Source: Malacoraja senta (Eukaryota). From it: 64,000 nt of DNA. Below the pieces are notes generated by a model. That model was not told where the DNA came from and searched no databases. It saw nothing but the letters and a program-made list of their open reading frames with translations. The stretch is from NCBI GenBank assembly GCA_038087875.1, contig CM075992.1, positions 4,280,001 to 4,344,000 on the forward strand. The letters are read 5' to 3'. This document shows positions 9,008-62,078 of the stretch, in pieces; position 1 is the stretch's first letter; every line of letters starts with the position of its first letter. A program made the translations under genes and the position numbers.

Positions 9008-9084
9008 ATGCTGCCAGATGTAGACACCGAAACCAACTTCCTCTACATTCAGGATTCAGGATCAGATCAAATTGTTGCTACAAA
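9008..9084 (+). CDS. NR5A putative first coding exon (MLPDVDTETNFLYIQDSGSDQIVAT)
   Basis: Resembles the NR5A2 N-terminal segment MLPKVETE. Ends at a strong donor AA|GTGAGT (9085). 77 nt, phase 2. Confidence 0.65.
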
Positions 9085-11795: not shown

Positions 11796-12602
11796 AAGCC
11801 ATTAATCCTATCTATTCCTTCATGCTGTATGTTATTTTTCAGAAGTTGGTATTCTTTTTTTGAGGTTGATAGTGTGCATACAAGCCCCTACCCCAGAGGA
11901 CTGGCGTTCACAGACTCTAGGCTCACTATACTGAGGGAGTGCTGTAATCAGCCTAGAGTTTGGCCCTTCAGCCCAACTTGCCCATACCAACCAACATGCC
12001 CCACCTACACTACGCCCACCTGCCTATGGTAGCCAATATCCTATACTATCCTAACCATGTACTTGTCCAAAGATATATATATATTTTTTAATTTGTGGGA
12101 GTTTGCTATACAGAAATTAGCTTTTTTAAATTCTCTTTTTATAAAATCATCTCGTAATAATTTTATTTTTAGTTTAGAGATACAGCACGGAAACAGGCCC
12201 TTCGGCCCATCGAGTCCACGCCAACCAGCGATCCCCACACATTAACACTATCACTACACACACATGGACAAATTTACATATACACCAAGCCAATTAACAC
12301 TACTAACCTGTACATCTTTGGAGTGTGGATGGAACCGAAGGGTCTCGGAGAAAACCCACACGGTCACGGGGAAAACATACAAACTGCGTACAGACAGCAC
12401 CCGTAATCAGGATCGAACCCGGTTTTCCGGCGCTGCAAGCGCTGTAAGGCAACAACTCTACCGCTGTGCCACCATGCCGCCCAAACATTTTGTTCAAACA
12501 TTTTGCCTCGACAGGGCAAGCATGGGATGAAGGGATAATTAAAAGAAGGGACTGCAACGTCAGATGCAGCAATCAATGACATTTTGTTTCTTTGAATCAT
12601 AG

Positions 12603-12725
12603 ATTCCCAGGTTAAGATGGAGTATCCTGTTGAATCGATGTGTGAGGAGTTGTGTCCGATTTGCGGAGACAAGGTCTAAGGTCTCTGGATACCACTATGG
12701 ACTCCTAACTTGCGAAAGTTGTAAG
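12603..12725 (+). CDS. NR5A exon, zinc finger 1 (SQVKMEY...EELCPICGDKV / SGYHYGLLTCESCK), frameshifted by a 7-bp duplication
   Basis: Acceptor ...AATCATAG (12602), ATG at 12617, donor AAG|GTATGA (12726). AAGGTCT repeated at 12671-12677 and 12678-12684 gives TAA at 12677-12679. Confidence 0.92.
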
Positions 12726-14464
12726 GTATGAAGCCTTGTCAGCCAGTTCTTGAGGATATGATTATAGTTGAAACCAGCCTTCAACCTCTCTAACCCTAGA
12801 TGCTGCCTCCCAATAGCTTTTAAGCTAAACAGTGGCACAGCGGCCAGTGGTAATGTTGCTTCGATGATATTGTAAATTGGCTCCAGTGTGAAAGACAGCG
12901 TTTGTGATTGGGGTGATTGCAGGTCGGGAGAATTTGGGGTTTAGGAACAGAGAAAAGCTTTGTTTTATGTGCTATTCAAATAGATAGATAGATACAATCA
13001 ATTCAAACTCTTTAAGGTGAGAGGGGGAATGTTTAAAGGAGTTGTGAGGAGGAGGTAATTTGCACAGAGTGATGGGTATCTGGAAAGTGATGCTGGGGTG
13101 GTGGTGGAGGAAGTTAAGACTATAGAACCAAGGACCTGCAGAGTCTGGAGAACATGAATAGGTGACCTTTCGGGTCAAGACTCCTCTTCAGCCGAAACTA
13201 AGAGGCTTTTACCCAGATACAGTACATGGATATATGATGAATGAGGGATATAGATCATGTGAAGGCGGAAGCTATTGGTTTAATTTGGCATCATGTTCAG
13301 CACAGACATTATGGGCCGAAGGGCCTGTTCCTGTTCCGTACTGTCCTATGTTCCACGTTCTGAATGGTGGGGTGGGCTTGAAGAGCCTGGTGACTTATCC
13401 CTGATCCTATTTTCAGGCATTCTTGTTCTTATGGCCACCAACAAGTGGGGTGGCAGGGTGGTGCAGTGGTAGAGTTGCTGCCTTATACACCGCCAGAGAC
13501 CCAGGTTCGATCCTGACTAAGGGTGCTGGCTGTACGGAGTTTGTATGTTCTCCCCGTGACCGCGTGGGTTTTCTCCTGATGCTCCGGTTTCCTACCACAC
13601 TCCAAAGACGTACTAGTTTGTAGGTTAATTGGCTCGGGTAAAATTGCATATTGGTCCCTAGTGTGTAGGATAGAACTAGTGCATGTGGTGTTCGCTGGTC
13701 GGCACGGACTGTATCTCCACACTATATCTCCAAAGTGTAAAGTCTAAAGTGGCACAGTCCAACTAGTGATTCATTGCAAGAATAACAGAGAAGAATGAGG
13801 AATAGATTGGTTAGACAGACTACCCAGAGTAGGCAAATTGAGAACTAGGTAAGGGAAGAAAGATTTAATAGGAACTTGAGTGGTAACATTTTCACACAAA
13901 GGGCGGTGGGTGTATGGAACAAGTTGCCTGAAGAGGTAGTTGAGGCAGGTACTAGCACAATGTTAAAGAGACATTTAGACAGGAACATGGATAGGACAGG
14001 TTTAGAGGGATATGGAGCAAATGCAGGCAGGTGGGACTAGTATGGATGGGACAAGTTAGTCTGTGTGGGCAAGTTGGGCCGAACAATGTGTTTCCATGTT
14101 GTATGACTCTATGACTCTAATGTACTAAACACCAGTAATCGCTGGATTGGACACAGTGCTTTTCAAGATCAGGCAGTTCAGTCCCTAATGAAAACCAAGT
14201 GTTTTGAAGATATGTTGTAACCGTCAAGTGAATAGAGAAGCGATACATTGGTGTACATGGGGCTATAAAGGCAACAAGTATTGTTTTAGAATGAGGAAGT
14301 GTTGTAGTGAGGGCGTCCTTGTGAAAGTAAACAGGAGCAACAAAGTTTACTGTTTATTCTGTTATTTATAGTCAATCCTCAAACCCCTTTGATTTTGTAA
14401 CAAGCCTTTGTAGATCACAATGTTCCTCTGGCTGGTTACAAACAAGTTGTCTTGTACTTAATTA

Positions 14465-18551: not shown

Positions 18552-18693
18552 GGCTTTTTTAAGCGCACGGTCCAGAACAACAAGCACTACACCTGTGTGG
18601 AAAACCAGAACTGTCCGATTGACAAAACGCAGAGGAAGCGCTGTCCTTACTGCCGATTTCAGAAGTGCCTGACAGTGGGGATGAAGTTGGAAG
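18552..18693 (+). CDS. NR5A exon, zinc finger 2 ([47 protein letters not shown])
   Basis: 142 bp, acceptor TTTTTAG, donor G|GTATTT. All DBD cysteines are present. Confidence 0.96.
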
Positions 18694-19924: not shown

Positions 19925-20585
19925 TTATATGCAGCTCAGAAACTGGCCCTTCAGCAGTAGGTTAGATTCAAAGCAGGCCTCTGTCAGGGAGCTGGGATGA
20001 AGGATACTGCCCCGAGGTGTCCCGTGCAACTTGTTTCTCTCGCGGTTCACAGACTCGCCAGCCGCCTGCCACCTTTGCGGGCTGGAAGAGTCTGTGTACC
20101 ACGTGTATGTGGAGTGTGTGAGGTTGCAGCCCCTGTTGCAATACCTAAAGGGGCTGCTCCTTGCCTTCTGGCTGCCCTTCACACCCACCATCCTCATCTT
20201 TGGCCACCCTGTGCGTAGGGGAGAGGGTGGGCTGAAGATGTCCTGGTTGGGTTGCTCCTGGGCCTGGCCAAGCTGGCCATCCGCGAGTCATGGAGCCAGG
20301 CGGAAGAGGGCTCTGCCCGAGCCGGCTGCCTGCCCCTTTTCCGGGGTTACGTCCACGCCCGGGTGGTGTTAGAGAGGGACTACGCCCTGTCCACGGGCTC
20401 CCTGGGGGATTTCCGGGACCGCTGGGCACTGCAGGGGGTGGAATGTATCCTCAATAAGGATTGTATTACAATTATCTGAAAATTTAGTGTCTTAGATAAT
20501 TAGGTGATTTTTGTTCTTTGGTGATGGGTGTGTAACCATGGTTTGGTTTAGTGTTATTTTGTACGTCATTGAATAAAATATTTTT
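19925..20585 (+). mobile_element. Tx1/L1-clade LINE 3' end (C-terminal zinc-binding region)
   Basis: CHLCGLEESVYHVYVECVRLQPL motif and 3' AATAAA at 20572-20577. Confidence 0.7.
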
Positions 20586-20614
20586 GTTCTAACTGGACAC
20601 GTTTTGTTTCGCAG

Positions 20615-21258
20615 CGGTGAGGGCAGATCGCATGCGGGGAGGCCGCAACAAGTTTGGGCCCTTGTACAAGCAGGACAGGGCATTGAAGCAACAGAAGAAG
20701 GCTCTGGTCCATGGCAGCAGGGTCAAATTGGATCCCACGGCATATGTGATGCAAAGCTTGTCGGCGGACCTGAATGGGCCCATCTCCGGTGAAGGTCTAC
20801 ACTCAGCCTCCAGATGCCTATCCTTGAGTTACAACAGCCTGTCGTCGCCGACGGGAGACCAGGACGCCTCTCTGCCGGTCAACATGTCCATTGGGGCTCA
20901 CGGCTCCATAGCAGGGTACCAAGTGTGCAGCCCCTTCCCCAGTTGCCACGTCAAGTCGGAGTACATGGAAGCCGGCTGCTCCGGCACGCAGGAGTCGCTG
21001 CTGGGAAACCCGTACGTTGTGGCCTACAGGTCTGCCTCCAGCGCCGCCGTGCCGCAGTTGATGCAGGAGCTGGTGAAGTGTGAGCCGGACGAGGCGCAGG
21101 TCCGGGCCAAGATCTTGAACTACCTGCAGCAAGAGCAGATGTCCAGAGGGAAGCACGAGAGGCTCAACACTTTTGGGATCATGTGCAAGATGGCCGACCA
21201 AACCTTGTTCTCCTTGGTGGAGTGGGCCAGAAGCAGCATCTACTTCAAGGAGCTGAAG
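20615..21258 (+). CDS. NR5A exon: FTZ-F1 box, hinge and LBD helices 1-3 (copy 1)
   Basis: Acceptor TTTCGCAG, donor AAG|GTAACG. Translates [29 protein letters not shown]...[23 protein letters not shown]. Confidence 0.93.
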
Positions 21259-21884
21259 GTAACGCACGGACAAAACAACTCTGTCGTGTTAACCATGTTA
21301 CTCATTCACAAAATGTACATAACACTGACAAGAAACACTAACAAGAAACACTAACAACATGCTGAGAGAATGGAGCGGCTGGGCTTGTACACTCTGGAGT
21401 TTAGAAGGATGAGAGGATATCTCATTGAAACATATAAGATTGTTAAGGGTTTGGACACGCTAGAGGCAGGAAGCATGTTCCCGATGTTGGGGGAATCCAG
21501 AACCAGGGGCCACAATTTAAGAATAAGGAGTAAGCCATTTAGGAGACGAGGAAACACTTTTTCTCACAGAGATTTGTGAGTCTGTGGAATTCTCTGCCTC
21601 AGAGGGCGGCGGAGGCCGGTTCTCTGGATACTTTCAAGATAGGGCTCTTAAAAATAGCGGAGTCAGGGGAAATGGGGAGAAGGCAGGAACGGGGTAGTGA
21701 TTGGGGATGATCAGCCATGATCACATTGAATGGCGGTGCTGGCTCGAAGGGCCGAATGGCCTACTCCTGCATCTATTGTCTATTGTCTATTGAAAGACTC
21801 ACAAATAACTGTCCTGCACAAGTACAAATGGTATATCTGCCCTTATGGTACTATTTTAGCAAAAGACAGCAAAGCTTCTCACTC

Positions 21885-22425
21885 TGTCCAGGGATCCCAA
21901 CAGTCCTTTCAGGTTAGGTAGAGGTTCACTTGCACCTCCTCTAACCTCATCTACTGTATCCGTTGTGGACTTTTATACATTGGCGAGACCAAACGTAGAC
22001 TGGCCGATCATTTGGCGGAACACCTTCGCTCAGTCCTGGACCTACCTGATGTCCAGGTTGCCAAACACTTTAATTCCCCTTCCCATTCGCACACTGACAT
22101 TTCTGTCCTCGGCCTCCTCCATTTCAAGTAACCCCTGCATTCCGTCTCTCTCCATCCCTCTCCCATCCAAATCGCACCAGATTCTCGTTCTCACCTTGCA
22201 AACAGCTAACAATGGCCAGTTTCCTTTATCATCGTTACATTTCACATATCTTATATTCATTTGTTCTACAGTATATCTCTCTACATCCCCATTTATATCT
22301 CTCGTTTCCTTTTCCCCCGATTTTCAGTCTGAAGAAGGGTCTCGACCCGAAACGTCACCCATTCCTTCTCTCCAGAGATGCTGCCTGTCCCGCTGAGTTA
22401 CTCAAGCATTTTGTGTCTATCTTCT
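21885..22425 (+). mobile_element. Penelope-like element fragment (GIY-YIG remnant plus pLTR with hammerhead motif); duplicate at 29774-30314
   Basis: FTCTSSNLIYCIRC...YIGETKRRL remnant followed by CTGAAGAAGGGTCTCGACCCGAAACGTC. Confidence 0.8.
22326..22360 (+). ncRNA. Minimal type I hammerhead ribozyme motif in a Penelope pLTR
   Basis: CUGAAGA (22329-35), helix II GGGUC-UC-GACCC, GAAA, palindromic ACGU helix III, GUC cleavage triplet (22354-56). Confidence 0.6.
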
Positions 22426-23839
22426 AGAAATGATTAGCTGGCTAGAATTTTCTGCACAACACCGTGACTCATTCTTTGCACTTTAGAGATACAGTGTGGA
22501 AACAGGCCCTTCGGCCCACCCAGACAGCATTGACCAGCAACCACCCATACACTAGCACTATCCTACACACTAGGGGCAATTTATAATTTTTTACCAAATC
22601 CAATTAACCTACAAACCTGTACAACTTTGGAGTGTGGGAGGAAACAGGAGCACCCCGGGAAAACCCACGCAGTCACAGGGGGAACGTACAAACTCCATAC
22701 AGACAGCATCCGTAGTGAGGATTGAACCAGGTCTCTGGCGCTGTAAGGCAGCAAGTCTACTGCCCCGCCACAGTGCTGCCCTGGGAGGAGACCAACAGCT
22801 TGCTCTCACCATGACCTGATGGGGTGGAGTGGGACTTGAGGTGATGTGAAAGGTCCCAAAGAGTCTGATCCTGTGCTGTACTGTTCTATGTAGAAACAAT
22901 GAACTGCGGATGCTGTTTTTTTTTTTTTTTAAAGGCACAAGGTGCTGGAGTAACTCAGCGGGTCATGCAGCATCTCTGGAGAACATGGATAGGTGACATT
23001 TCAGGGCACATTACCGCCCACACTTTGCCCTGCCTCTTTGCTCTTCTAGCTTTCTTCCTCCACCCCCACCTGCGATCAGTCAGAAGAAGAGTGCTGACCC
23101 ACAATGTCACCCATCCATGTTCTCCAGAGATGCTGCCTGATCCGCTGAGTTAATCCTGCACTTTGTGCCCTTAAGTTGCAGATTGTGATCTTCCGTAGAT
23201 TTGTTTGTGTCAGCAGGTTAATTTTTTGTCTTTGTGTCTTTCCTTTCTGATCCAGCATCTGCAGTTCTTTATGTTTCCGGCGCAATGAGTGATCAGTTTC
23301 TTTAAGCGTGATGTTTGAGGGATACGTTTACTGCCTCTCAATCAAGAGGTGGTCTAGAATCATGTACGCCAGGTTAAGGAGAGAAAGACTGGGGTTTAAA
23401 ATCACCTCTGAGAAATATCTGGAGCTTCGGCTGGATCGAGCAGCTACTGTACGTTGCTCGATGATATAATAGGCATTGTTTTAAGCCATGGGCACCAACA
23501 ACACAGTGGTACAGCAGCCAGCCCTGCAACCTCATAGCTCCAGTTTCAGTGCTGACTTTAGATGCTGTTGGTGTGGAGTTTGCAAGTCTCACTGTGACCA
23601 AGTGGGTTTCCCTGGAGTGTTTCCTCCCACATCGGTGGGATTGATATCGGTTTATTACTGCTGTGTGCACTGAGGTACAGTGAAGCGCTATGTCTGCATG
23701 CTCTGCATAAATACATTCAAACTATACACAAATATAATGGGCGATGCAACGAGAAAAATTCCATAGTGCAGAATATGGTGTTATAGCTTAATGTTGTCAC
23801 AGTTAAAGAGGAGCGAGTTTGAAGGGTAATTGGCCTCCA

Positions 23840-24870
23840 TAAAATAGTAAGATTAAACGAGAACTTACCAGTTTGAAGTTTGATCTTTATTTTATGAGGA
23901 GTTACGTCGAGGGATTACGTGAAGACCCCACCAGCACGCATGCGTGACATTCTTCAAAGCAACGGTGTGGAATCACAGTAATAGTAATGAAATAAACATA
24001 GTAAGATAAGAAGAACTAGGATACCAGTTGATCTTTACAAGAGGGTGGGCGTGGAGGGCACGTAATCCCTCGACGTAACTCCTCATAAAATAAAGATCAA
24101 ACTTCAAACTGGTAAGTTCTCATTTAATCTTACTATTTTACTTCGGAGTCACGTGAGTGACTACGTGAAGATTTTAAAGATTTGTGATTTCATGCCATGG
24201 AAACGAGTCCATGCTTCACACACTGCATCAGTTGACTACTGATGAGTGATCATTAATAATGCATTCAGACATGACTTAGATATAGACATGTTGATGCTTT
24301 TAATAAACAAACAATGATAATAGTAACCTCACTCAACCGAGAGGGAACTATGAAACAGAACTAGCATAGAGTTGGCAACTACCCCCAATCTGGTAATGGG
24401 TTGTTATAAATGATTGGAAAGATTGTTAGTTTGACCACCCTGCAGTCCCTAGGATGTGGTCCCCCTAACGTCCATACCCTGCTGCTGTGGTAGTTGCAGC
24501 CCTGGTGGAGTGAGACTTGAATATTAGTGTTCACTCCTGTATAAGCCAGCCCCTTTAAAACCACCTGGAGATGGTCTGTAGTGATCCCTGCTTACAAGGC
24601 TAATGTAACTAACAATATTGCTAGTTCAGAGTCTTTAATGCTCTAGTGACCTACATTCTGGTGTAGATGTGTGACTACACACAACCAAAGGTCCATGAAA
24701 TATATGAACAATCTAGTTAGACCTGATGCCCCTAGTCTATTCTGCTTGACTAAGTCATAAACATAATGTTATTTAGCCCGCAGATATTATCATCGTGTCC
24801 AGTCACTGCTAATGCCATGTCTGGAACCGTTGTGCTGAACTCAGTGCCATGGGCATAACCACTTGTAGGC
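23840..24870 (-). mobile_element. DIRS-type tyrosine-recombinase retrotransposon 3' relic; duplicate at 31729-32760
   Basis: Decayed YR motifs on the - strand (QTISRW, FKSHSTRAATT, HILGTAGWS, YNNP) plus an 82-bp inverted repeat at 23840-23921 / 24059-24140. Confidence 0.75.
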
Positions 24871-27800
24871 GATTCCTTCGCTCCAGAAACGCTGCCTGTC
24901 CTGCTGAGTTGCTCCAGCATTTTGTGTCGATCTTAAATGTTTCTGCTTATCATCAAACTATCAATATGTTGACAGAACATTTGATTTATTTCCATCAAAG
25001 AAGATACAAACATTCAAAGTGAAAACTTCCTGCTCAGATTAGGTAAAAAGTATACATTCCTATACTAATATTGAGATGTTATCACTACTTTGTATCTTAG
25101 ACAAGTTGCTAAAGTGACTTTTATCAAATTCCACATGTTATTTCATACAAATGTTACGACTTCGCTGGTTTAAAACAAAGAAGTTTACTATAGTTTATGA
25201 TGACCATTTTAAAATAACCAACACTTCTGAAAATAGATGGGTGACGTTACAGGTTAGGACCTTACTTCACACTGAAGATTTTAATCTCCACTGATTCAAG
25301 CAGAACTTAAAGCTCCAATTAGTCAGGACACTTTGAATGTAAGAGCACAGTATTGAATGTGTAGGAAGGAACTGCAGATGCTGGTTTACACTGAAGATAG
25401 ATGCAAAATGCTAGCGGGACAGGCAGCACCTCTGGATAGAAGGAATGGATGGCGTTTTGGTTCAAGACACTTTTTCAGAAGAAAGGTCTCGACTGGAAAC
25501 GCTGCCCATTCCTATCCAGAGAGGCTGCCTGTCCCGCTGAGTTACTCCAGCATTTCTGCATCTCGCACAATCCTGAATGTGTGCAACATCTGCCAAATGT
25601 GTACAGGATCCATCCTATTTTTCCAGAGATGCTGCCTGACCCGATAAGTTACTCCAGCACTCTGTGTCCCACTTTGTATAAACCGGCATCTGCAGTTCAT
25701 TGTTTAGAAGGCAGTCTCCTGCCTGCCTGTGATTGTTTGGATGTTAGGAAGCACCAGTTGTGTGTTGTGGGGGAGGGAGGGAGGGAGGGAGCTGCGGAAG
25801 AGAACAGTCACAGGAAGAACATTCTTTGTAGAGGGCTCATCTGCTCAGGAGGACACGGTGGCTCATCTCCTTTCAGGAACTGGCCTGACCGGCCAAATAA
25901 ACAGGATGGAGGGTCCTGTGTTCCCGGGGATAGGGAATCCCTTTGGTTCACGCTGTCTTTATCACCAAGCCGAGACTGAACGCACTTCCTGATGCATGCC
26001 ATGTGTTTTCAACAAATTTTCCCAAATCTTACTTGATGCTGCCTCATATGACTTTGATTAGGCCAATTTAGAGTAATAATGACGTGCAGGAAGGAACTGC
26101 AGATGTTTTAAAACAAAGAAAGACACAAAATGCTGGAGTAACTCAGCGGGACAGGCAGCATCTCTGGAGAGTAATGGGTGATGTTTCCAGTCGAGACCCT
26201 TCGGAAGAAGGATCTCGACCCGAAACATCACCCTTTCAGAAGAAGGGTCTCGACCACGAAACTTCACCCATTCCTTCTCTCCAGAGATGCCGCCTGTCCC
26301 GCTGAGTTACTCCAGCATTCTGTGTCTATCTTTAGAGTAAAGATGACCATCGTTATAATGCACCATGATGGTGGGGAGTGGAGGGAACGGTGTCCGTTAT
26401 TACCGATTGTCCGCTATAACAGTCTGCTTTTCTGTATGGGGTTTCCTCCCGCACTGCAAATATGTACAGGTTTGTAGGTTAATTGGCTTGGTAGAAATAT
26501 TTGCATAAATTGTCCCTAGTGTGTGTAGGATAGTGTTAGTGTGGATCGCTGGTCGGTGCGGACTCGGTGGGCCGAATGCCCTGTTTCCGCTCTGTATCTA
26601 TAAACTAAAACCGAGTAAGGGATTCGTTCAAACCACCTAGCGATCACTCTGTGAAACAAAACTTGTTGTTTTCAATGTTGAAGAAGGAACTGCAGATGCT
26701 GGAAAATCGAAGGTGGACAAAAGTGCTGGAGAAACTCAGCGGGTGCGGCAGCAACTATGGAGCGAAGGAAAAAGGCAACGTTTCGGCCGAAACCTTGCCT
26801 ATTTCCTTCGCTCCATAGATGCTGCCGCACCCGCTGAGTTTCTCCAGCACTTTTGTCTACCTTAGTTGCTTTCAATGACTTTTAACAGCTAAAAATGTTT
26901 TTTTTTGTTGTTACTGCAAGCTAAACCTGCTAAAGGTTGTTTGTTACATAGTTTGATAGAGTATCATTGCACATGTGTAGACTGAAACAATTGCTTGTCA
27001 ATTTCCAGCACTCCCACAGTGTAACCAGCAGCCTGTGGTCTTAAAGAGACTGGTGTCTTATTACTGTGGGGAAACTCTTTCCACTATAACCAAAATCCGT
27101 CATAAAGAGGTCCGTAATAACAAGTGCAGACTGCATTGTGTACAGTTCTGGTCGGCCCTTTAAAGGAAGGATATGGAGGACGAGTTGCACCCTGGCCGCT
27201 CCCTCTTCTCCCCTCTCCCATCAGGCAGAAGGCATAGAAGTGTGAAAACGCACACCTCCAGATTCAGGGACAGTTTTGTTCTCAGGGCAGCTATTATCAG
27301 GCAACAAAACCATCCTACCACAACTGGAGAGCAGTCCTGAACTACTATCTACCTCATTGGTGACCCTCGGACTATCTTTGATTGGACTTTATTGGCTTCA
27401 CCTTGTCATGCAGCTCAGAAACGGGTCTTTGGCCCAACTCGTCCACGCCAGCCAAAATAGCCCATCTAAGCTAGCTCCATTTGCCTATGTGTGGCTCACA
27501 TCCCCTCAAACCTTCCCTATACATGTACCTGTCAAAGTGTTATTTAAATACTGTCATAGTACCTGCCTCAACTACCTCCTCTGGCAGCTCATTCCATATA
27601 TCATCCGCTGAGTGAAAAAGTTGCACCACAGGTTCCTATTAATGTTTTCCCTTCTCTCACCTTAAACCTATGTTCTGTGGTTCTTGATTTCTCCACCCTG
27701 GGCAAAATACTCTGTGCACTCACTTTATCTATTCCCCTCATGATTTTATACAGTTCCATGAGACATCCCTCATCCTCCTTGACACCAAGAAATAAAATCC

Positions 27801-27993
27801 TAGCCTGCCCGAACTCTCCCTATAACTCAGGCCCTCGAGTCCTGGGAACATCCTCGTAAATTTCTGAACTCTTTCCAGTTTAATGACATATTTCCAGCTT
27901 AGGACCTGCGATTGTTCTCTTGTACATCGGAGGGCGTATTAACATTAAACTACTTTGCTCAGCTGAAAGTATTTTAAACTCTAGGCTGACTTG

Positions 27994-28193
27994 NNNNNNN
28001 NNNNNNNNNNNNNNNNNNNNNNNNNNNNNNNNNNNNNNNNNNNNNNNNNNNNNNNNNNNNNNNNNNNNNNNNNNNNNNNNNNNNNNNNNNNNNNNNNNNN
28101 NNNNNNNNNNNNNNNNNNNNNNNNNNNNNNNNNNNNNNNNNNNNNNNNNNNNNNNNNNNNNNNNNNNNNNNNNNNNNNNNNNNNNNNNNNNNN
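27994..28193. other. Assembly gap (200 N)
   Basis: Run of N. Confidence 1.
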
Positions 28194-28503
28194 AGAGGGC
28201 TCTGCCCGAGCCGGCTGCCTGCCCCTTTTCCGGGGTTACGTCCACGCCCGGGTGGTGTTAGAGAGGGACTACGCCCTGTCCACGGGCTCCCTGGGGGATT
28301 TCCGGGACCGCTGGGCACTGCAGGGGGTGGAATGTATCCTCAATAAGGATTGTATTACAATTATCTGAAAATTTAGTGTCTTAGATAATTAGGTGATTTT
28401 TGTTCTTTGGTGATGGGTGTGTAACCATGGTTTGGTTTAGTGTTATTTTGTACGTCATTGAATAAAATATTTTTGTTCTAACTGGACACGTTTTGTTTCG
28501 CAG

Positions 28504-29147
28504 CGGTGAGGGCAGATCGCATGCGGGGAGGCCGCAACAAGTTTGGGCCCTTGTACAAGCAGGACAGGGCATTGAAGCAACAGAAGAAGGCTCTGGTCCA
28601 TGGCAGCAGGGTCAAATTGGATCCCACGGCATATGTGATGCAAAGCTTGTCGGCGGACCTGAATGGGCCCATCTCCGGTGAAGGTCTACACTCAGCCTCC
28701 AGATGCCTATCCTTGAGTTACAACAGCCTGTCGTCGCCGACGGGAGACCAGGACGCCTCTCTGCCGGTCAACATGTCCATTGGGGCTCACGGCTCCATAG
28801 CAGGGTACCAAGTGTGCAGCCCCTTCCCCAGTTGCCACGTCAAGTCGGAGTACATGGAAGCCGGCTGCTCCGGCACGCAGGAGTCGCTGCTGGGAAACCC
28901 GTACGTTGTGGCCTACAGGTCTGCCTCCAGCGCCGCCGTGCCGCAGTTGATGCAGGAGCTGGTGAAGTGTGAGCCGGACGAGGCGCAGGTCCGGGCCAAG
29001 ATCTTGAACTACCTGCAGCAAGAGCAGATGTCCAGAGGGAAGCACGAGAGGCTCAACACTTTTGGGATCATGTGCAAGATGGCCGACCAAACCTTGTTCT
29101 CCTTGGTGGAGTGGGCCAGAAGCAGCATCTACTTCAAGGAGCTGAAG
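28504..29147 (+). CDS. NR5A FTZ-F1/hinge/LBD exon, copy 2 (within the probable false duplication)
   Basis: Same translation as 20615-21258 at offset 7889. Confidence 0.85.
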
Positions 29148-32100
29148 GTAACGCACGGACAAAACAACTCTGTCGTGTTAACCATGTTACTCATTCACAA
29201 AATGTACATAACACTGACAAGAAACACTAACAAGAAACACTAACAACATGCTGAGAGAATGGAGCGGCTGGGCTTGTACACTCTGGAGTTTAGAAGGATG
29301 AGAGGATATCTCATTGAAACATATAAGATTGTTAAGGGTTTGGACACGCTAGAGGCAGGAAGCATGTTCCCGATGTTGGGGGAATCCAGAACCAGGGGCC
29401 ACAATTTAAGAATAAGGAGTAAGCCATTTAGGAGACGAGGAAACACTTTTTCTCACAGAGATTTGTGAGTCTGTGGAATTCTCTGCCTCAGAGGGCGGCG
29501 GAGGCCGGTTCTCTGGATACTTTCAAGATAGGGCTCTTAAAAATAGCGGAGTCAGGGGAAATGGGGAGAAGGCAGGAACGGGGTAGTGATTGGGGATGAT
29601 CAGCCATGATCACATTGAATGGCGGTGCTGGCTCGAAGGGCCGAATGGCCTACTCCTGCATCTATTGTCTATTGTCTATTGAAAGACTCACAAATAACTG
29701 TCCTGCACAAGTACAAATGGTATATCTGCCCTTATGGTACTATTTTAGCAAAAGACAGCAAAGCTTCTCACTCTGTCCAGGGATCCCAACAGTCCTTTCA
29801 GGTTAGGTAGAGGTTCACTTGCACCTCCTCTAACCTCATCTACTGTATCCGTTGTGGACTTTTATACATTGGCGAGACCAAACGTAGACTGGCCGATCAT
29901 TTGGCGGAACACCTTCGCTCAGTCCTGGACCTACCTGATGTCCAGGTTGCCAAACACTTTAATTCCCCTTCCCATTCGCACACTGACATTTCTGTCCTCG
30001 GCCTCCTCCATTTCAAGTAACCCCTGCATTCCGTCTCTCTCCATCCCTCTCCCATCCAAATCGCACCAGATTCTCGTTCTCACCTTGCAAACAGCTAACA
30101 ATGGCCAGTTTCCTTTATCATCGTTACATTTCACATATCTTATATTCATTTGTTCTACAGTATATCTCTCTACATCCTCATTTATATCTCTCGTTTCCTT
30201 TTCCCCCGATTTTCAGTCTGAAGAAGGGTCTCGACCCGAAACGTCACCCATTCCTTCTCTCCAGAGATGCTGCCTGTCCCGCTGAGTTACTCAAGCATTT
30301 TGTGTCTATCTTCTAGAAATGATTAGCTGGCTAGAATTTTCTGCACAACACCGTGACTCATTCTTTGCACTTTAGAGATACAGTGTGGAAACAGGCCCTT
30401 CGGCCCACCCAGACAGCATTGACCAGCAACCACCCATACACTAGCACTATCCTACACACTAGGGGCAATTTATAATTTTTTACCAAATCCAATTAACCTA
30501 CAAACCTGTACAACTTTGGAGTGTGGGAGGAAACAGGAGCACCCCGGGAAAACCCACACAGTCACAGGGGGAACGTACAAACTCCATACAGACAGCATCC
30601 GTAGTGAGGATTGAACCGGGTCTCTGGCGCTGTAAGGCAGCAAGTCTACTGCCCCGCCACAGTGCTGCCCTGGGAGGAGACCAACAGCTTGCTCTCACCA
30701 TGACCTGATGGGGTGGAGTGGGACTTGAGGTGATGTGAAAGGTCCCAAAGAGTCTGATCCTGTGCTGTACTGTTCTATGTAGAAACAATGAACTGCGGAT
30801 GCTGTTTTTTTTTTTTTTTAAAGGCACAAGGTGCTGGAGTAACTCAGCGGGTCATGCAGCATCTCTGGAGAACATGGATAGGTGACATTTCAGGGCACAT
30901 TACCGCCCACACTTTGCCCTGCCTCTTTGCTCTTCTAGCTTTCTTCCTCCACCCCCACCTGCGATCAGTCAGAAGAAGAGTGCTGACCCACAATGTCACC
31001 CATCCATGTTCTCCAGAGATGCTGCCTGATCCGCTGAGTTAATCCTGCACTTTGTGCCCTTAAGTTGCAGATTGTGATCTTCCGTAGATTTGTTTGTGTC
31101 AGCAGGTTAATTTTTTGTCTTTGTGTCTTTCCTTTCTGATCCAGCATCTGCAGTTCTTTATGTTTCCGGCGCAATGAGTGATCAGTTTCTTTAAGCGTGA
31201 TGTTTGAGGGATACGTTTACTGCCTCTCAATCAAGAGGTGGTCTAGAATCATGTACGCCAGGTTAAGGAGAGAAAGACTGGGGTTTAAAATCACCTCTGA
31301 GAAATATCTGGAGCTTCGGCTGGATCGAGCAGCTACTGTACGTTGCTCGATGATATAATAGGCATTGTTTTAAGCCATGGGCACCAACAACACAGTGGTA
31401 CAGCAGCCAGCCCTGCAACCTCATAGCTCCAGTTTCAGTGCTGACTTTAGATGCTGTTGGTGTGGAGTTTGCAAGTCTCACTGTGACCAAGTGGGTTTCC
31501 CTGGAGTGTTTCCTCCCACATCGGTGGGATTGATATCGGTTTATTACTGCTGTGTGCACTGAGGTACAGTGAAGCGCTATGTCTGCATGCTCTGCATAAA
31601 TACATTCAAACTATACACAAATATAATGGGCGATGCAACGAGAAAAATTCCATAGTGCAGAATATGGTGTTATAGCTTAATGTTGTCACAGTTAAAGAGG
31701 AGCGAGTTTGAAGGGTAATTGGCCTCCATAAAATAGTAAGATTAAACGAGAACTTACCAGTTTGAAGTTTGATCTTTATTTTATGAGGAGTTACGTCGAG
31801 GGATTACGTGAAGACCCCACCAGCACGCATGCGTGACATTCTTCAAAGCAACGGTGTGGAATCACAGTAATAGTAATGAAATAAACATAGTAAGATAAGA
31901 AGAACTAGGATACCAGTTGATCTTTACAAGAGGGTGGGCGTGGAGGGCACGTAATCCCTCGACGTAACTCCTCATAAAATAAAGATCAAACTTCAAACTG
32001 GTAAGTTCTCGTTTAATCTTACTATTTTACTTCGGAGTCACGTGAGTGACTACGTGAAGATTTTAAAGATTTGTGATTTCATGCCATGGAAACGAGTCCA

Positions 32101-35100
32101 TGCTTCACACACTGCATCAGTTGACTACTGATGAGTGATCATTAATAATGCATTCAGACATGACTTAGATATAGACATGTTGATGCTTTTAATAAACAAA
32201 CAATGATAATAGTAACCTCACTCAACCGAGAGGGAACTATGAAACAGAACTAGCATAGAGTTGGCAACTACCCCCAATCTGGTAATGGGTTGTTATAAAT
32301 GATTGGAAAGATTGTTAGTTTGACCACCCTGCAGTCCCTAGGATGTGGTCCCCCTAACGTCCATACCCTGCTGCTGTGGTAGTTGCAGCCCTGGTGGAGT
32401 GAGACTTGAATATTAGTGTTCACTCCTGTATAAGCCAGCCCCTTTAAAACCACCTGGAGATGGTCTGTAGTGATCCCTGCTTACAAGGCTAATGTAACTA
32501 ACAATATTGCTAGTTCAGAGTCTTTAATGCTCTAGTGACCTACATTCTGGTGTAGATGTGTGACTACACACAACCAAAGGTCCATGAAATATATGAACAA
32601 TCTAGTTAGACCTGATGCCCCTAGTCTATTCTGCTTGACTAAGTCATAAACATAATGTTATTTAGCCCGCAGATATTATCATCGTGTCCAGTCACTGCTA
32701 ATGCCATGTCTGGAACCGTTGTGCTGAACTCAGTGCCATGGGCATAACCACTTGTAGGCGATTCCTTCGCTCCAGAAACGCTGCCTGTCCTGCTGAGTTG
32801 CTCCAGCATTTTGTGTCGATCTTAAATGTTTCTGCTTATCATCAAACTATCAATATGTTGACAGAACATTTGATTTATTTCCATCAAAGAAGATACAAAC
32901 ATTCAAAGTGAAAACTTCCTGCTCAGATTAGGTAAAAAGTATACATTCCTATACTAATATTGAGATGTTATCACTACTTTGTATCTTAGACAAGTTGCTA
33001 AAGTGACTTTTATCAAATTCCACATGTTATTTCATACAAATGTTACGACTTCGCTGGTTTAAAACAAAGAAGTTTACTATAGTTTATGATGACCATTTTA
33101 AAATAACCAACACTTCTGAAAATAGATGGGTGACGTTACAGGTTAGGACCTTACTTCACACTGAAGATTTTAATCTCCACTGATTCAAGCAGAACTTAAA
33201 GCTCCAATTAGTCAGGACACTTTGAATGTAAGAGCACAGTATTGAATGTGTAGGAAGGAACTGCAGATGCTGGTTTACACTGAAGATAGATGCAAAATGC
33301 TAGCGGGACAGGCAGCACCTCTGGATAGAAGGAATGGATGGCGTTTTGGTTCAAGACACTTTTTCAGAAGAAAGGTCTCGACTGGAAACGCTGCCCATTC
33401 CTATCCAGAGAGGCTGCCTGTCCCGCTGAGTTACTCCAGCATTTCTGCATCTCGCACAATCCTGAATGTGTGCAACATCTGCCAAATGTGTACAGGATCC
33501 ATCCTATTTTTCCAGAGATGCTGCCTGACCCGATAAGTTACTCCAGCACTCTGTGTCCCACTTTGTATAAACCGGCATCTGCAGTTCATTGTTTAGAAGG
33601 CAGTCTCCTGCCTGCCTGTGATTGTTTGGATGTTAGGAAGCACCAGTTGTGTGTTGTGGGGGAGGGAGGGAGGGAGGGAGCTGCGGAAGAGAACAGTCAC
33701 AGGAAGAACATTCTTTGTAGAGGGCTCATCTGCTCAGGAGGACACGGTGGCTCATCTCCTTTCAGGAACTGGCCTGACCGGCCAAATAAACAGGATGGAG
33801 GGTCCTGTGTTCCCGGGGATAGGGAATCCCTTTGGTTCACGCTGTCTTTATCACCAAGCCGAGACTGAACGCACTTCCTGATGCATGCCATGTGTTTTCA
33901 ACAAATTTTCCCAAATCTTACTTGATGCTGCCTCATATGACTTTGATTAGGCCAATTTAGAGTAATAATGACGTGCAGGAAGGAACTGCAGATGTTTTAA
34001 AACAAAGAAAGACACAAAATGCTGGAGTAACTCAGCGGGACAGGCAGCATCTCTGGAGAGTAATGGGTGATGTTTCCAGTCGAGACCCTTCGGAAGAAGG
34101 ATCTCGACCCGAAACATCACCCTTTCAGAAGAAGGGTCTCGACCACGAAACTTCACCCATTCCTTCTCTCCAGAGATGCCGCCTGTCCCGCTGAGTTACT
34201 CCAGCATTCTGTGTCTATCTTTAGAGTAAAGATGACCATCGTTATAATGCACCATGATGGTGGGGAGTGGAGGGAACGGTGTCCGTTATTACCGATTGTC
34301 CGCTATAACAGTCTGCTTTTCTGTATGGGGTTTCCTCCCGCACTGCAAATATGTACAGGTTTGTAGGTTAATTGGCTTGGTAGAAATATTTGCATAAATT
34401 GTCCCTAGTGTGTGTAGGATAGTGTTAGTGTGGATCGCTGGTCGGTGCGGACTCGGTGGGCCGAATGCCCTGTTTCCGCTCTGTATCTATAAACTAAAAC
34501 CGAGTAAGGGATTCGTTCAAACCACCTAGCGATCACTCTGTGAAACAAAACTTGTTGTTTTCAATGTTGAAGAAGGAACTGCAGATGCTGGAAAATCGAA
34601 GGTGGACAAAAGTGCTGGAGAAACTCAGCGGGTGCGGCAGCATCTATGGAGCGAAGGAAAAAGGCAACGTTTCGGCCGAAACCTTGCCTATTTCCTTCGC
34701 TCCATAGATGCTGCCGCACCCGCTGAGTTTCTCCAGCACTTTTGTCTACCTTAGTTGCTTTCAATGACTTTTAACAGCTAAAAATGTTTTTTTTGTTGTT
34801 ACTGCAAGCTAAACCTGCTAAAGGTTGTTTGTTACATAGTTTGATAGAGTATCATTGCACATGTGTAGACTGAAACAATTGCTTGTCAATTTCCAGCACT
34901 CCCACAGTGTAACCAGCAGCCTGTGGTCTTAAAGAGACTGGTGTCTTATTACTGTGGGGAAACTCTTTCCACTATAACCAAAATCCGTCATAAAGAGGTC
35001 CGTAATAACAAGTGCAGACTGCATTGTGTACAGTTCTGGTCGGCCCTTTAAAGGAAGGATATGGAGGACGAGTTGCACCCTGGCCGCTCCCTCTTCTCCC

Positions 35101-36703
35101 CTCTCCCATCAGGCAGAAGGCATAGAAGTGTGAAAACGCACACCTCCAGATTCAGGGACAGTTTTGTTCTCAGGGCAGCTATTATCAGGCAACAAAACCA
35201 TCCTACCACAACTGGAGAGCAGTCCTGAACTACTATCTACCTCATTGGTGACCCTCGGACTATCTTTGATTGGACTTTATTGGCTTCACCTTGTCATGCA
35301 GCTCAGAAACGGGTCTTTGGCCCAACTCGTCCACGCCAGCCAAAATAGCCCATCTAAGCTAGCTCCATTTGCCTATGTGTGGCTCACATCCCCTCAAACC
35401 TTCCCTATACATGTACCTGTCAAAGTGTTATTTAAATACTGTCATAGTACCTGCCTCAACTACCTCCTCTGGCAGCTCATTCCATATATCATCCGCTGAG
35501 TGAAAAAGTTGCACCACAGGTTCCTATTAATGTTTTCCCTTCTCTCACCTTAAACCTATGTTCTGTGGTTCTTGATTTCTCCACCCTGGGCAAAATACTC
35601 TGTGCACTCACTTTATCTATTCCCCTCATGATTTTATACAGTTCCATGAGACATCCCTCATCCTCCTTGACACCAAGAAATAAAATCCTAGCCTGCCCGA
35701 ACTCTCCCTATAACTCAGGCCCTCGAGTCCTGGGAACATCCTCGTAAATTTCTGAACTCTTTCCAGTTTAATGACATATTTCCAGCTTAGGACCTGCGAT
35801 TGTTCTCTTGTACATCGGAGGGCGTATTAACATTAAACTACTTTGCTCAGCTGAAAGTATTTTAAACTCTAGGCTGACTTGGTGTGAAGACTTTAAGCCG
35901 AATATCTGTTGCCTTTAGCAGTGGAATGGGACAAAATGCTGAAGTGATTTATCAGCAAGATTTTTTTACGCGTGCATTCTCGGCAAAGGATCTGTTGATT
36001 TCCTGAAACCACGTTTGTCAAGCTTAGAATATCAAGCGCTTGTTTACTGGCACAGCTGTAATGATGCATTGCAACAGGCTTGCTCCCCTTTATGGGATGC
36101 ATGTGCTCGAGAGATTGTGTGAAACAGGATGATGGGAGCACATCGCACTGTGAACAGAAAAATGACAGGAAAGTGCCCACGTTTTTCTGACGAGATGTTT
36201 GTGTGTGATGATTGCTGGACTTCCTCACTAATCCACGGAGACGCATACAGGAAAAGCCCTTGCAATATATCATTCAGCATCCCATCCTGCTTCCTCTCCT
36301 CCCCCATCGTTCAGCCTGACCCCATAGTGCAGAGTAAGATTTTACGCTGTCATTGCTCTCCTCACCTGTGGGTCACCAGTCACCTCATCTTTGTAGTAGG
36401 TGGGGGATCTGTGCAACTCATTGTCAGTGGAGGCCAAGTCCAGTTTAAGTTTAGTTTAGAGATACAGTGCAGAAACAGGCCCATCGGCCCACTGACCAGC
36501 GATCCCCACACACTAACACTATCCTACACACACTGGGGACAATTTACACTTATACCAAGCCAATTAACCTACAAACCTCTGCGTCCTTGGAGCGTGGGAG
36601 GAAAACCTAAGATCTCGGAGAAACCCCATGCAGGTCACAGGGAGAATATACAAACTTCATACAGACAGCACCCGTGGTCAGGATCTAACACGGGTCTCTG
36701 TAA

Positions 36704-38878: not shown

Positions 38879-38998
38879 GTTGACGATCAGATGAAACTTC
38901 TTCAGAACTGCTGGAGCGAACTTCTAATCATGGACCACATCTACCGGCAGATGGCTCACGGAAAGGAGTCAAATATCCTCCTTGTCACTGGGCAACAG
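38879..38998 (+). CDS. NR5A LBD exon ([40 protein letters not shown])
   Basis: 120 bp, phase 0/0, acceptor TGTGACAG, donor CAG|GTAAAT. Confidence 0.95.
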
Positions 38999-40297: not shown

Positions 40298-40445
40298 ATC
40301 GACTTGTCGACCATCCCTTCACAATCTGGAGCCGCGTTGAATAATCTGGTGAACCGCACCCAGGAATTGGTAGCCAAGTTCCGGTCTCTGCAAACAGATC
40401 ATCACGAGTTTGTCTGCTTGAAGTTCCTGGTCCTCTTCAGCCCAG
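40298..40445 (+). CDS. NR5A LBD exon ([49 protein letters not shown])
   Basis: 148 bp, acceptor CTCTCTCAG, donor G|GTAAGC. Confidence 0.95.
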
Positions 40446-42915: not shown

Positions 42916-43160
42916 ATGTGAAGAACCTGGAGAATCGTCCCTTTGTGGAAAGTGTCCAGGAGAAGGTGAACAGGACTCTCATGGACTACACCATGTGCTT
43001 CCCCCAGCAGGTTGATCAGTTCAGGCAGCTCCTCCTACGGCTCCCGGAGATACGTGCCATCAGCATGCAAGCGGAGGAGTACCTCTACCTCAAGCACTTG
43101 AATGGAGATGTGCCTTGTAACAACCTGCTGATTGAAATGCTCCATGCCAAGCACGTGTGA
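42916..43160 (+). CDS. NR5A terminal coding exon with AF-2 ([12 protein letters not shown]...LLLRLPEIR...[13 protein letters not shown])
   Basis: Acceptor TTTCCACAG, stop TGA at 43158-43160. Phase matches the previous exon. Confidence 0.96.
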
Positions 43161-50059: not shown

Positions 50060-51913
50060 GGACTTGGCGTCGAAGGACGAGAAGCCGAAGCAAAGAAGTG
50101 GAAGCCAAATAACCGAACTGAAACGCCAAATAAGCGAAAGCATACGAAGCCGAAACGCCAACTAACCGAAAGGGTGGGACGTCTAAAAGCAAACTAACTG
50201 AAAGGGCGGGACGCCTAAAAGCCAACTAACCGAAAGGGTGGGACGCCTAAAAGCCAACTAACCAAAAGGGAAGGACACCTAAAAGCAAACACACCGAAAG
50301 GCCGCTCTGCCGAAACGCCAACTCACCGGAAGGCTGCATCGCCTACAAGCCAACTCGCCGAATGGCCGCTCTGCTGAAAAGTCATATAACGGACATGACG
50401 TCGCCGGGGGCGGGACTTGTAAGCGATTGGTCCAGACCCCCGCGTCCATCACATCACTGGCCGGTGGAGACGGGAGGGTGGGGGTCATTTTCCCACACAA
50501 GCCATACGTGACTGGGCACTCTGAACCCGAGCACAAAGTTGTAAGCGGTCGAAGGAGCGCATCCCTCAGGACAGCCCCCACTCTCCCACGGCCACCCTCC
50601 GCCTCGTCTCCCCCGCGCGGCTGCACTGTGACGGGCTGTGTGTCGGTCGGATGATGGCGACGGTCGACTGATTGCCGGCGGTCTGGATTAATGCACCGCA
50701 TCGGCTGCTGAGCCAGGGTCACCCCCGAAACACCTCCAGCAATGAGCTGGATATTCCCGCTGTCAAAGAGCGGCAGCGGCGGCGGCAACGGTCACCTGCC
50801 GCCTCTGACCAACTTGCAGCAGCAACGCCAGCGGCAGATCGAGTCGGTGAAGAGATCGCACAGTGGGTGAGTGCGGCGCTCCGCTGCTGGGCGGCATCAC
50901 CCCTGCTATCTCCCCCCCCCGGCGGCATTGCCCCCGCTATTTCCCCCTCCCCCAGCGGCATCGCCACCGCCACCCCCGCTAATCCCCCTCCCCCGGGCGG
51001 CATCACCGCCGCTAATCTCCCCTCCCCCGGGCGGCATCACCCCCCGCTATTCCTCCCTCCCCCCGGCAGCATCGCCCCCGCTACCTCCCCTTCCACCCCT
51101 GGGCGGCATTGCCACCGCCACCGCCACCCCCGCTATCCATCCCCCCACTTAATTAATCAGGTTCCTGAATGTAAGAACTATTTATACATGTAACATTTTT
51201 GTTTTTAAATCAGTAACTCTTTTTTGAGTTTTAATGCCGATCCCGTCCTGTGGGAAGGGCTTGCGGCAGCTGGTTTCATAGTGCCTTCATTGTTGGTAGG
51301 TGCTGATCTTTCACCTCTGCTCCACCCAGCGCTGCCGACACACAGCCCCTCACAGTGCGGCTGCATGGGGGAGACGAGGCGGAGGGCGGTCGTGGGAGAG
51401 TGGGGGCTGTCCCGAGGGATGCGCTCCTTCGGCCGCTTACAACTTGATGCTTCGGTTCAGAGTGCCCAGTCACCTATGGCTTGTGTGGGAAAATGACCCC
51501 ACCCTCTCGTCTCCATTGGCCAGTGATGTGAGGGATGCGGGGGTCTGGACCAATCGTGACAAGTCCCGCCCCCCGGCATCATCATGTCTGTTATTTGACT
51601 TTTCAGCAGAGTGGCCATTCGGTGAGTTGGCTTGTAGGCGATGCAGCCTTTCGGTGAGTTGGCTTGTACGGTGAGTTGGCGTTTCGGCAGATAGGCCTTT
51701 CGGTGAGTTTGCTTTTAGGCGTCCCACCCTTTCGGTTAGTTGGCTTTTAGGCTTCCAGCCCTTTCGGTGAGTTTGCTTTTAGGCGTCCCACCCTTTCGGT
51801 TAGTTGCCGTTTCGGTTTCAGACGCTTTCGGTTATTTTGCGTTTCGGCTTCGTTTCCGTTCAGTTATTTGGTTTCCACTTCTTTGCTACGGCTTCTCATC
51901 CTTCAACGTCCGG
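50060..51913. mobile_element. Foldback-type DNA element with ~580-bp inverted arms built from short tandem units
   Basis: 50060-50646 is the reverse complement of 51335-51913. Units AAAGCCAACTAACCGAAAGGGTGGGACGCCT. Confidence 0.75.
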
Positions 51914-55509: not shown

Positions 55510-55651
55510 TTAGTTATCGCACCCGAAGATCCCAAGGTTGTCGGCAAACACCCTCAGGTCTTTACAGAGGTTTCTGAACATCTCCTGTTGGCATTCTGCA
55601 TTGCTTGGCCACCTTTCTATCCATGTATTTTCTCCAATCAGATATCTCACT
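55510..55651 (-). CDS. C3: Complement C3-like terminal exon (RVRYLIGENTWIERWPSNAECQQEMFRNLCKDLRVFADNLGIFGCDN*)
   Basis: Acceptor ATATTTCAG. Matches the C3 C-terminus YIIGKDTWVEHWP...C...C...FGCPN. Phase is compatible with the previous exon. Confidence 0.92.
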
Positions 55652-58600: not shown

Positions 58601-59127
58601 AAGGAGGGGTGTGGGTATATTCAAGGCAGAGTGAAAATGTTTTGAGTTATGAAGTAACTCCAGATGTGATGTTAGTGCAGGAAGATAGGGCTGAGGTAAA
58701 AGATCAGTCTTTAAGTAGCTGAACGGGTGTGAAGAGACTCGCTGCAGTCAATTGTTTTTATTTCACCTCTTGTTTCCCTGGGATCCTGTAACATACGATT
58801 GGTTTCTTATCAATTAGGGCATTGATCCCAGAGAACTCAAATGTAGCATTGACTGAATTTCATTGACTGGAAAACATTGGGATATTTTGACCAGGTGAAA
58901 TTTGCTGCAGGAATGCAAGCCCCATTCCATCTTTTGTGTTTCAATTGTCTGTAAATTATCTAGGTACTTCACGCCTATTTGTAATATCTCTGAAATTGTT
59001 AAACCTCAATTTTATAATATTTATTAAAGTAATGATTTAATTTAAGTTAGTTTCTCCTATATCCAAATGTTAATTGAGCCAGAAAGCTGGAGAATGAACA
59101 CGAGTTGCATCAGATTTTGCAGCTTAC

Positions 59128-59263
59128 CTCTCCTTATCATCCCACAGATCTGAGCCCTGTCCCATTATTAGATAATCTTGGTTCAGTTCCACGTTAAATA
59201 TATCATTACAGTTGGCTTGTGTGATTAGTTCCCTCACATCATCTTGAGCGACTGCATCGCTTC
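59128..59263 (-). CDS. C3: Complement C3-like exon (GSDAVAQDDVRELITQANCNDIFNVELNQDYLIMGQGSDLWDDKE)
   Basis: 136 bp, phase 1/2, acceptor TTTTCATTTTAG, donor AG|GTAAGC. Matches C3 GSDEV...C...HYLMWGLSSDFW. Confidence 0.9.
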
Positions 59264-60572
59264 CTAAAATGAAAATTCACACAATTACATGATAGACCAA
59301 TCTTATCCACCATTGTTCAATGCCATGAAATTTGGTGCTAAATTGTCACTAATTAACTCTTGATGCCTAATATGTTTATGACAAACTGTATGTGACTTAA
59401 ATGGCTAATGTTGTCCTGTAACTCATCACTTGCAATGAATTGGGAATCTTCATTTTGCTAATTAGAAAATATTTTTTGAGTCATATAGCCTTCTGTTGGG
59501 TGTATGATCTCAAGGCTATGAATGTGAACTCAGCAACTTTGCCATTTTGTGATTATAATGATGAAATGTAAGGCAATGTGTGAGAATGGTCTTGCTGTTT
59601 AGATTTTAATTCCTTAGTTATTGATTGGTAGTAGATGTTCGTTCAGTAAGTATGCATGCAAGATACATTTATCTGCATAATGTGGAGTATCTATAATATC
59701 CTTCTGTTCAAGTGAATCCATGTGACACAACAATGCAATTGTGGCAATAAAGAAATCATGTTGTGGGTAACACTTTCACAGCTGTACATTCTGGATCAGA
59801 ACCATATTCTGTGTTCACAATTCAGATCAGGCCTCTACTGCATCCTCTAGCAGTTCATTCTACGTTGTTGTCAACCTAAATGTGAAAATGTCTTTCAGCT
59901 CCTTTTAAAATATTTCTCCTCCTAACTGAAACCTATGTCCTCTTATTTTTAGATTCCTCTTTCCTGGGTAAAAGACTGTGACCACGCACTTTATCTGTGA
60001 CCCTGATGATTTTATATGTCTCTATAAGGTCACTCCTCAGCTTCCTACACTCCAGGGGAAAAATCCAGCTTCCCCTTATAACTCAACCCCAATGACTTGT
60101 GGAAATGCGCAAAAGCTGTCCAGTACAAATATTCTATTCCAACAATGCAAATACTCTTTGTCTTCAATTATTAGAGGGTGTGTAGAGCCAGTCCTGTCAG
60201 GGATGTGTGACCAGCTCTGCTAAGTGGGTTATTTCCCAGACATGGTCCAGTTTTCTTAATCTTGCTACTTCACTTCCTCTTTTAAACTATTTGCTTTGAT
60301 CATGCTTTTGCTATAATTCTACACAAACGTTTTCAAAGATACCCCAAAAAATCATGTGCATGTCAAATAAGAGTTCAGACGACAGTAAAACATGCTTTAC
60401 AAGTGTACATTCTCAGGATAAAACTATCCAGATACTTGTACAAACTTTGTAATCTATTCCAAACCCTGTATGACTAAAAATGTGCACTTCACATGTAGAA
60501 CTTTGCCCATGGAGGTGTATATATCCTTATACCTCTGTGCTGCCATGGTCCTCAGGTATAGGAATTACTCAC

Positions 60573-60656
60573 CTTGTTTGATAAGAGCCAGAATTTTCAT
60601 TGCGTAGTATATGTAACTGTCTCTCTTTTCCTTTCCAGTAAATGTCACTTTGTAAA
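60573..60656 (-). CDS. C3: Complement C3-like exon (VYKVTFTGKEKRDSYIYYAMKILALIKQ)
   Basis: 84 bp, phase 1/1, acceptor TTTTCTTTTTTAG, donor AAG|GTGAGT. Matches C3 VYKTRL...YIMAIEQTIKSG. Confidence 0.88.
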
Positions 60657-61997: not shown

Positions 61998-62078
61998 CAT
62001 AATCAGTTCCTGGGGCGCATGAAAAGTCATCACGTTTTTCAAGTTCTCTTTGATCTGTCTTTATTGGAACACAGCTTC
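61998..62078 (-). CDS. C3: Complement C3-like exon, start of C345C domain (GSCVPIKTDQRELEKRDDFSCAPGTDY)
   Basis: 81 bp, phase 1/1, acceptor TTCTGCATCTGCAG, donor G|GTAAAG. Aligns by eye to human C3 ENCFIQK...LDKACEPGVDY. Confidence 0.88.

Follow-up and report, generated by a model that had tools for sequence, protein, structure and literature searches.

The NR5A receptor gene in the window (the whole 64,000-nucleotide stretch of Malacoraja senta DNA that was analysed) carries a 7-bp tandem duplication in its zinc finger 1 exon, and this broken copy is likely private to the individual, or a slip of the assembly, and not a species-wide loss. The reading we favour, at a probability of about one in two, is a real null allele, young and unfixed, that lies on the assembled haplotype and is likely heterozygous. 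Judged from sequence, the gene is NR5A5, an elasmobranch paralog annotated as 'NR5A2-like' and distinct from both NR5A1 and NR5A2. As a feature of the assembly it is real but unremarkable, either a frameshift private to the animal or an assembly error, and the NR5A5 model has two further defects.

A sequence-only reading of this DNA had described two adjacent copies of AAGGTCT at 12671-12684 (context GAC AAGGTCT AAGGTCT CT GGA, 12668-12689) and a frame that begins at ATG 12617 and ends after 20 codons at TAA 12677-12679 in an exon ending at 12725; the assembly letters (GGA GAC AAGGTCT AAGGTCT CT GGA TAC at 12665-12692) bear all of this out. The lesion removes the second CxxC pair of finger 1. 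Translation from ATG 12617 gives MEYPVESMCEELCPICGDKV, terminated by that TAA, and the remainder of finger 1 (SGYHYGLLTCESCK) is encoded in the next frame, after the +7 frameshift. Reads of the duplicated allele would contain AAGGTCTAAGGTCT. Perfect 7-bp tandem duplications were more frequent in 56 kb of this DNA than in simulation (16 observed vs 2.4 simulated), an excess to be expected, as most short insertions, and short tandem ones usually, come from slippage. A clean 7-bp tandem copy fits a common natural type of insertion.

Rescue of the frame by removal of a 7-base 'intron' (AG/GTCTAAG/GT) was rejected, 7 nt lying far under the minimum size of spliceosomal introns. Nor can the +1 in exon 1a be offset by the +7 in exon 2, since the net change is +8 and the exon-1a frame stops ahead of the second lesion. 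An alternative acceptor in exon 2 (CCCAG/GTT) was also rejected, being out of frame with exon 1a as assembled.

Downstream of the lesion, the frames of exons 3-7 are open, with GT-AG splice sites, all four finger-2 cysteines and AF-2 in place, just as the sequence-only reading had stated. Finger 2 of the C4 double finger is recognised by the Pfam model, finger 1, though encoded, is interrupted by the +7, and a 25-residue stretch after the fingers, which we take to be the FTZ-F1 box, aligns with NR5A1 and NR5A2. The ligand-binding domain with AF-2 is present (Hormone_recep match on exon 7 and on the ortholog P0126). The description of the receptor as 'otherwise pristine' is contradicted by a +1 frameshift in exon 1a and by the presence of exon 4 twice (Table 1). 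In exon 1a, the letters ATTG (9071-9074) take the place of a Met of the orthologous proteins, and the long isoform that starts in this exon meets, as assembled, a stop after 29 residues, in exon 2. Another conserved first exon, exon 1b (MSACVVGAV..., L021:9141-9204), lies a short way upstream, outside the window; it is intact and has a phase-1 donor, and the exon 1a lesion alone would thus be no null. Mouse NR5A2 without its N-terminal extension works normally (PMC3594184), which by analogy supports the view that the exon-1a lesion would be tolerable.

Table 1. Features of the NR5A5 gene and of the duplication around the scaffold gap, in window coordinates.
Feature	Position	Strand	Remarks
Exon 1a, coding part of alternative first exon (MLPDVDTETNFLYIQDSGSDQ...)	9008..9084	+	+1 frameshift near 9071-9074; 77 nt, one more than the 76 of phase 1
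Exon 2, zinc finger 1 with the second start (ATG 12617)	12603..12725	+	exon begins at 12603
AAGGTCT twice (7-bp tandem duplication), TAA 12677-12679	12671..12684	+	missing from 4/4 runs compared
Exon 3, zinc finger 2, in-frame ATG 18681 (MKLE)	18552..18693	+	Pfam zf-C4 positions 25-69
Copy A of 7,689-bp near-perfect duplication	20305..27993		99.92%; ends exactly at gap
Exon 4 copy A, C-terminal extension, hinge, LBD start	20615..21258	+
200-N scaffold gap	27994..28193		between contigs of ~128 and ~125 kb
Copy B of the duplication, carries exon 4 copy B (28504-29147)	28194..35881		starts exactly at gap; likely false duplication
Exon 5 (LBD)	38879..38998	+
Exon 6 (LBD)	40298..40445	+
Exon 7, LBD end, AF-2 LLIEML, stop	42916..43160	+

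The two copies that adjoin the gap differ by 5 substitutions and 1 homopolymer indel, their copies of exon 4 are identical, and splicing in both of these would meet a stop. The junction that a true tandem duplication would have is nowhere seen in the sequence (20305-35881). A gap between near-identical copies is described as a primary mark of false duplication, half read depth being among the others (PMC9516828). By that signature, 20305-35881 is likely a false (heterotype) assembly duplication, and the doubled exon 4 an unmerged overlap of contigs; the 6 differences between the overlap copies suggest that two haplotypes are represented at the locus. Near-identical copies of genes were also found elsewhere in the assembly (L006/L007, 100%, 0/3,138; L041/L042, 99.89%, 4/3,747; L062/L063, 99.79%, 8/3,774), which suggests unpurged haplotype duplications. 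A V-ATPase G exon is duplicated beside another 200-N gap (L108/L109, G000:C11:10752638-10759101), here at 97.5% and with 30 gaps in 2.8 kb, likely a second false duplication with a noisy consensus. Head-to-tail duplications of 98-99% with no gap adjoining lie at G000:C16:4192249-4196888 (~2.3 kb) and 4437965-4442061 (~2.1 kb), and a GC-rich stretch of the window contains a pair of inverted repeats (50068-50646 and 51335-51908; ~590 bp, 85% identity).

That the gene is NR5A5 follows from several comparisons. In exon 4, identity to Leucoraja 'NR5A2-like' is 95%, against 58% to Leucoraja NR5A2. In a tree of 22 rows from which the hinge was removed, the window gene and five 'NR5A2-like' proteins of sharks and rays join teleost nr5a5 (ff1c; e.g. 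Hippocampus XP_051904381.1) in one clade at 97/95, with nr5a5 represented by only two seahorse sequences on a long branch (0.51). The AU test rejected a placement with NR5A2 (p 0.012) or with NR5A1 (p 0.011). The diagnostic columns are split 8 vs 8: eight are shared with nr5a5 against NR5A1 and NR5A2, whereas eight others are common to the shark genes and NR5A2, which, like the long branch, sets teleost nr5a5 apart from the shark genes. The closest proteins, from Amblyraja radiata (XP_032868096.1) and Leucoraja erinacea (XP_055520084.1), differ from the window gene at 10 and 15 of 495 residues, respectively, and have the same alternative first exons. The elasmobranch 'NR5A2-like' models are intact, whereas the window gene has two frameshifts (+7 in exon 2, +1 in exon 1a) and a doubled exon 4. 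That RefSeq 'NR5A2-like' genes of sharks and rays group with teleost nr5a5 is a side result of modest use. NR5A evolution was reportedly treated by Kuo et al. 2005. Zebrafish nr5a5 is expressed in liver and intestine (PMC1298332), the gene appears in cichlid expression tables (PMC3773371), and it is reported to be positively selected in planktivorous fishes (PMC13385881). In the literature searched, which included few subscription titles, no paper turned up that deals with NR5A5 in elasmobranchs or with its loss there.

The surroundings of the gene consist of a keratin-like gene and a complement C3-like gene, with a CAMSAP gene on the same scaffold. The type I keratin-like gene lies upstream of the receptor on the minus strand (L024, G000:C16:4240357-4249089). 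The C3-like gene, also on the minus strand, extends from 55513-62097 on to G000:C16:4429117, its last four exons lying inside the window, and a second C3-like piece is found beyond a gap (G000:C16:4446782-4449618). Among elasmobranchs, scaffolds that match the receptor's scaffold in length carry C3-like genes in 6 species and keratin-like genes in 2. The side of the genome with NR5A5 and C3 is presumably linked to human 19p13. A second NR5A gene is present on C11 with an intact finger-1 exon, groups with NR5A1 in the tree and lies beside an NR6A1-like exon, a neighbour that belongs to this copy and not to the window gene. Protein searches of the assembly did not find a canonical NR5A2; only NR5A1 on C11 and the window gene matched. 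A third CAMSAP gene (partial) and a second V-ATPase G gene were seen on small contigs (660 and 243 kb); in human, we take it that paralogs of CAMSAP and V-ATPase G genes flank NR5A2. For the missing NR5A2, an assembly gap or a stretch outside the search is likelier than loss.

Whether the duplication is shared was assessed with sequencing runs of four organisms (4 of 23 listed) over 12480-12960: the 7 bases were missing from 4/4. None of the runs listed was marked as RNA, although X19, X20 and X23 may be of that kind. The sequences compared are Logan contigs, from which minor alleles are dropped; they establish the existence of intact alleles, but the animals concerned may still carry the duplication. 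Run X1, which could be compared from 12633 on only, has a single AAGGTCT and just 1 other letter in 321 that differs from the window (99.7% identical), whereas X2, X4 and X7 have 13, 18 and 18 other letters in ~445. X1 agrees with the window at 12746 and 12806, where the three other runs differ. In the ~450 bp compared, the 7-bp difference is the only indel that all runs have in common against the window. X1 accounts for 0.39 of the sampled words, its piece explaining ~0.23, and its divergence comes near that of duplicate copies within the assembly (0-0.2%); it may stem from the same species or from a sister species. Since X1 is near-identical and intact, the change is either younger than the split from X1 or still segregating. 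The X1 contig starts exactly at 12633, inside exon 2 and with no loose end, a start that a graph branch from a variant near 12632, a record left unread or a filter could equally explain.

Alignment of the orthologous exon 2, which the sequence-only reading had proposed as a check, found it intact in 16/16 elasmobranch orthologs aligned. Once its frame breaks are bridged, the protein of the window gene shows 0 private changes across the 310 columns that do not vary among the orthologs; a loss of constraint, if there is one, must be very young. The lineage changes number 4 in the window gene (I>V, P>S, T>M, A>P) vs 6 in Leucoraja and 1 in Amblyraja, and no sign of relaxed selection in the other exons was seen at the protein level over the 310 invariant columns. 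The ortholog of Rhinoraja longicauda (P0127) has 7 private changes at otherwise invariant columns, three of them at the start of finger 1 (EEL>EDS, DK>DR), a sign of faster evolution of NR5A5 in this other skate. An intact haplotig of exon 2 or of exon 1a was not found in the assembly, each having one match, and the intact partner called for by the favoured reading is thus not seen there.

The reliability of the consensus can be gauged from other genes. On the same contig, the keratin-like gene has no frameshift in 6 exons. In the C3-like gene (1,611/1,651 residues covered), a single -1 frameshift was seen; it affects exon 2 and lies near G000:C16:4428993, 4.5 kb from a gap. Among 147 GPCR matches scored (of 3,368 candidates), 5 had frame changes when the 20 most suspect were inspected; 2 further matches among these 20 were split in frame where a stop had been listed. 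The resulting background of ~1 frameshift per 20 kb is a lower bound in which errors and true pseudogenes are counted together. If the rate lies between 1 per 20 kb and 1 per 5 kb, the chance of one frameshift in the 1.56-kb coding region is 7-27% and that of two in NR5A5 0.3-4%, and the latter hints at a shared cause, either poor local consensus or an older dead allele.

The sequence-only reading had offered a recent gene loss, a segregating null allele or a consensus error. The set was right, and the recent loss is its weakest member because the 7 bases were absent from 4/4 runs compared; overlooked were the second frameshift, the exon-4 duplication flanking the gap and the identity of the gene as NR5A5, with NR5A1 separately present. 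On the unlikely side is an artefact, in which NR5A5 would be intact in the animal, with AAGGTCT only once, and all three defects (the extra 7 bases, the exon-1a +1 and the doubled exon 4) would stem from the assembly process. The gene already contains one probable artefact (the gap-abutting duplication that matches the signature in PMC9516828), the assembly is fragmentary (contigs of ~125 kb here) and holds other near-identical gene copies as well as the second, noisier exon duplication at a gap (97.5%, 30 gaps), an indel-rich contig end, frameshifts occur in other genes (C3-like exon 2; 5/147 GPCR matches), the 7 bases were seen in 0/4 runs, and the gene has two indels yet no damaging substitutions. 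However, 15 kb separate the site from the contig end, the two independently ended contigs agree at 99.92% in their overlap, with 1 indel in 7,689 bp, which supports a real allele, and the 7-bp difference is the sole indel that all runs share against the window. The other frameshifts, where their size can be told, appear to be 1-2 base events, unlike a clean 7-bp copy.

A very recent loss, in which NR5A5 would be a homozygous or fixed pseudogene of the skate species, too young for other decay, is improbable. It is favoured by two frame breaks in cis, by the lack of an intact copy in the assembly and by the possibility that X1 (share 0.39) comes from a sister species; in addition, none of the tetrapod matches listed bears the name nr5a5 and, to our knowledge, NR5A5 has been lost in mammals. 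A fixed loss requires X1 to be another species, despite its intact sequence at 99.7% identity over the piece compared, and it has to be reconciled with 16/16 intact elasmobranch orthologs, 310 untouched invariant columns, an intact exon 1b and intact splice sites throughout. That the skate, within the history of its species, has lost its DNA-binding NR5A5, a gene kept by the other sharks and rays examined, through two homozygous frameshifts in cis is given a low probability; if true, a gene loss would have been caught before decay, possibly leaving a zinc-finger-less product of 389 aa, and, with NR5A2 also not found in the assembly, NR5A1 could be the only intact NR5A. Very improbable is a functional switch, in which a 389-aa zinc-finger-less NR5A5, made by reinitiation at 18681, or only exon-2-skipping forms, would bind cofactors and in this way modulate NR5A1 and NR5A2. 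The product from ATG 18681 had been suggested to be confined to the LBD; the ATG is indeed in frame, 175 nt past the stop and with G at -3, but the 389-aa protein would keep the C-terminal extension (FTZ-F1 box) and the hinge. RefSeq predicts an isoform starting with MKLE in Heptranchias, a sevengill shark (P0005); for Leucoraja and Amblyraja (P0123, P0124) it predicts MQGFFK isoforms that skip exon 2. Yet both kinds are predicted from intact genes, the mutation being unneeded, and an MKLE product would thus be no new consequence of it. An out-of-frame ATG in strong context (12697) precedes 18681, the change is present in none of the relatives compared, and the MQ exon was not placed in the genome, where three ATGCAG-GT candidates lie upstream, at least one of them in a repeat-like context. 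No paper on an LRH-1 start that lacks the DNA-binding domain turned up in a literature search that took in few subscription titles. In Pogona vitticeps, nr5a1 transcripts have premature stops, as here, and an inhibitory product is proposed; these truncated transcripts arise by splicing and their products keep the DNA-binding domain, which the skate lesion loses (PMC8795496).

For the favoured reading, a young and likely heterozygous null allele, replication slippage would have made the tandem copy. Translation would be halted inside zinc finger 1, exon-2 transcripts would give peptides of 20 to 46 residues, and these transcripts would likely be degraded by nonsense-mediated decay, given that five more exons follow exon 2; stops very near the start can escape this decay. 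The animal would likely depend on its other haplotype, with the gene intact, and the exon-1a +1 would be a consensus error or a tolerated second hit. The case resembles segregating loss-of-function alleles, in which a single frameshift likewise sits in a gene otherwise under purifying selection and relatives lack the change. It also resembles false gene losses in haploid references, likewise marked by gap-separated near-identical duplicates (PMC9516828). If the lesion is private or an artefact, it serves as a warning only: the NR5A5 model would be called a pseudogene or be mis-annotated, and a single gene with three defects illustrates how a haploid assembly mimics the loss of a gene. If the lesion is fixed, the skate would offer a natural knockout of NR5A5, the NR5A paralog that has been least studied in vertebrates, with close relatives intact, and NR5A5 function would become testable.
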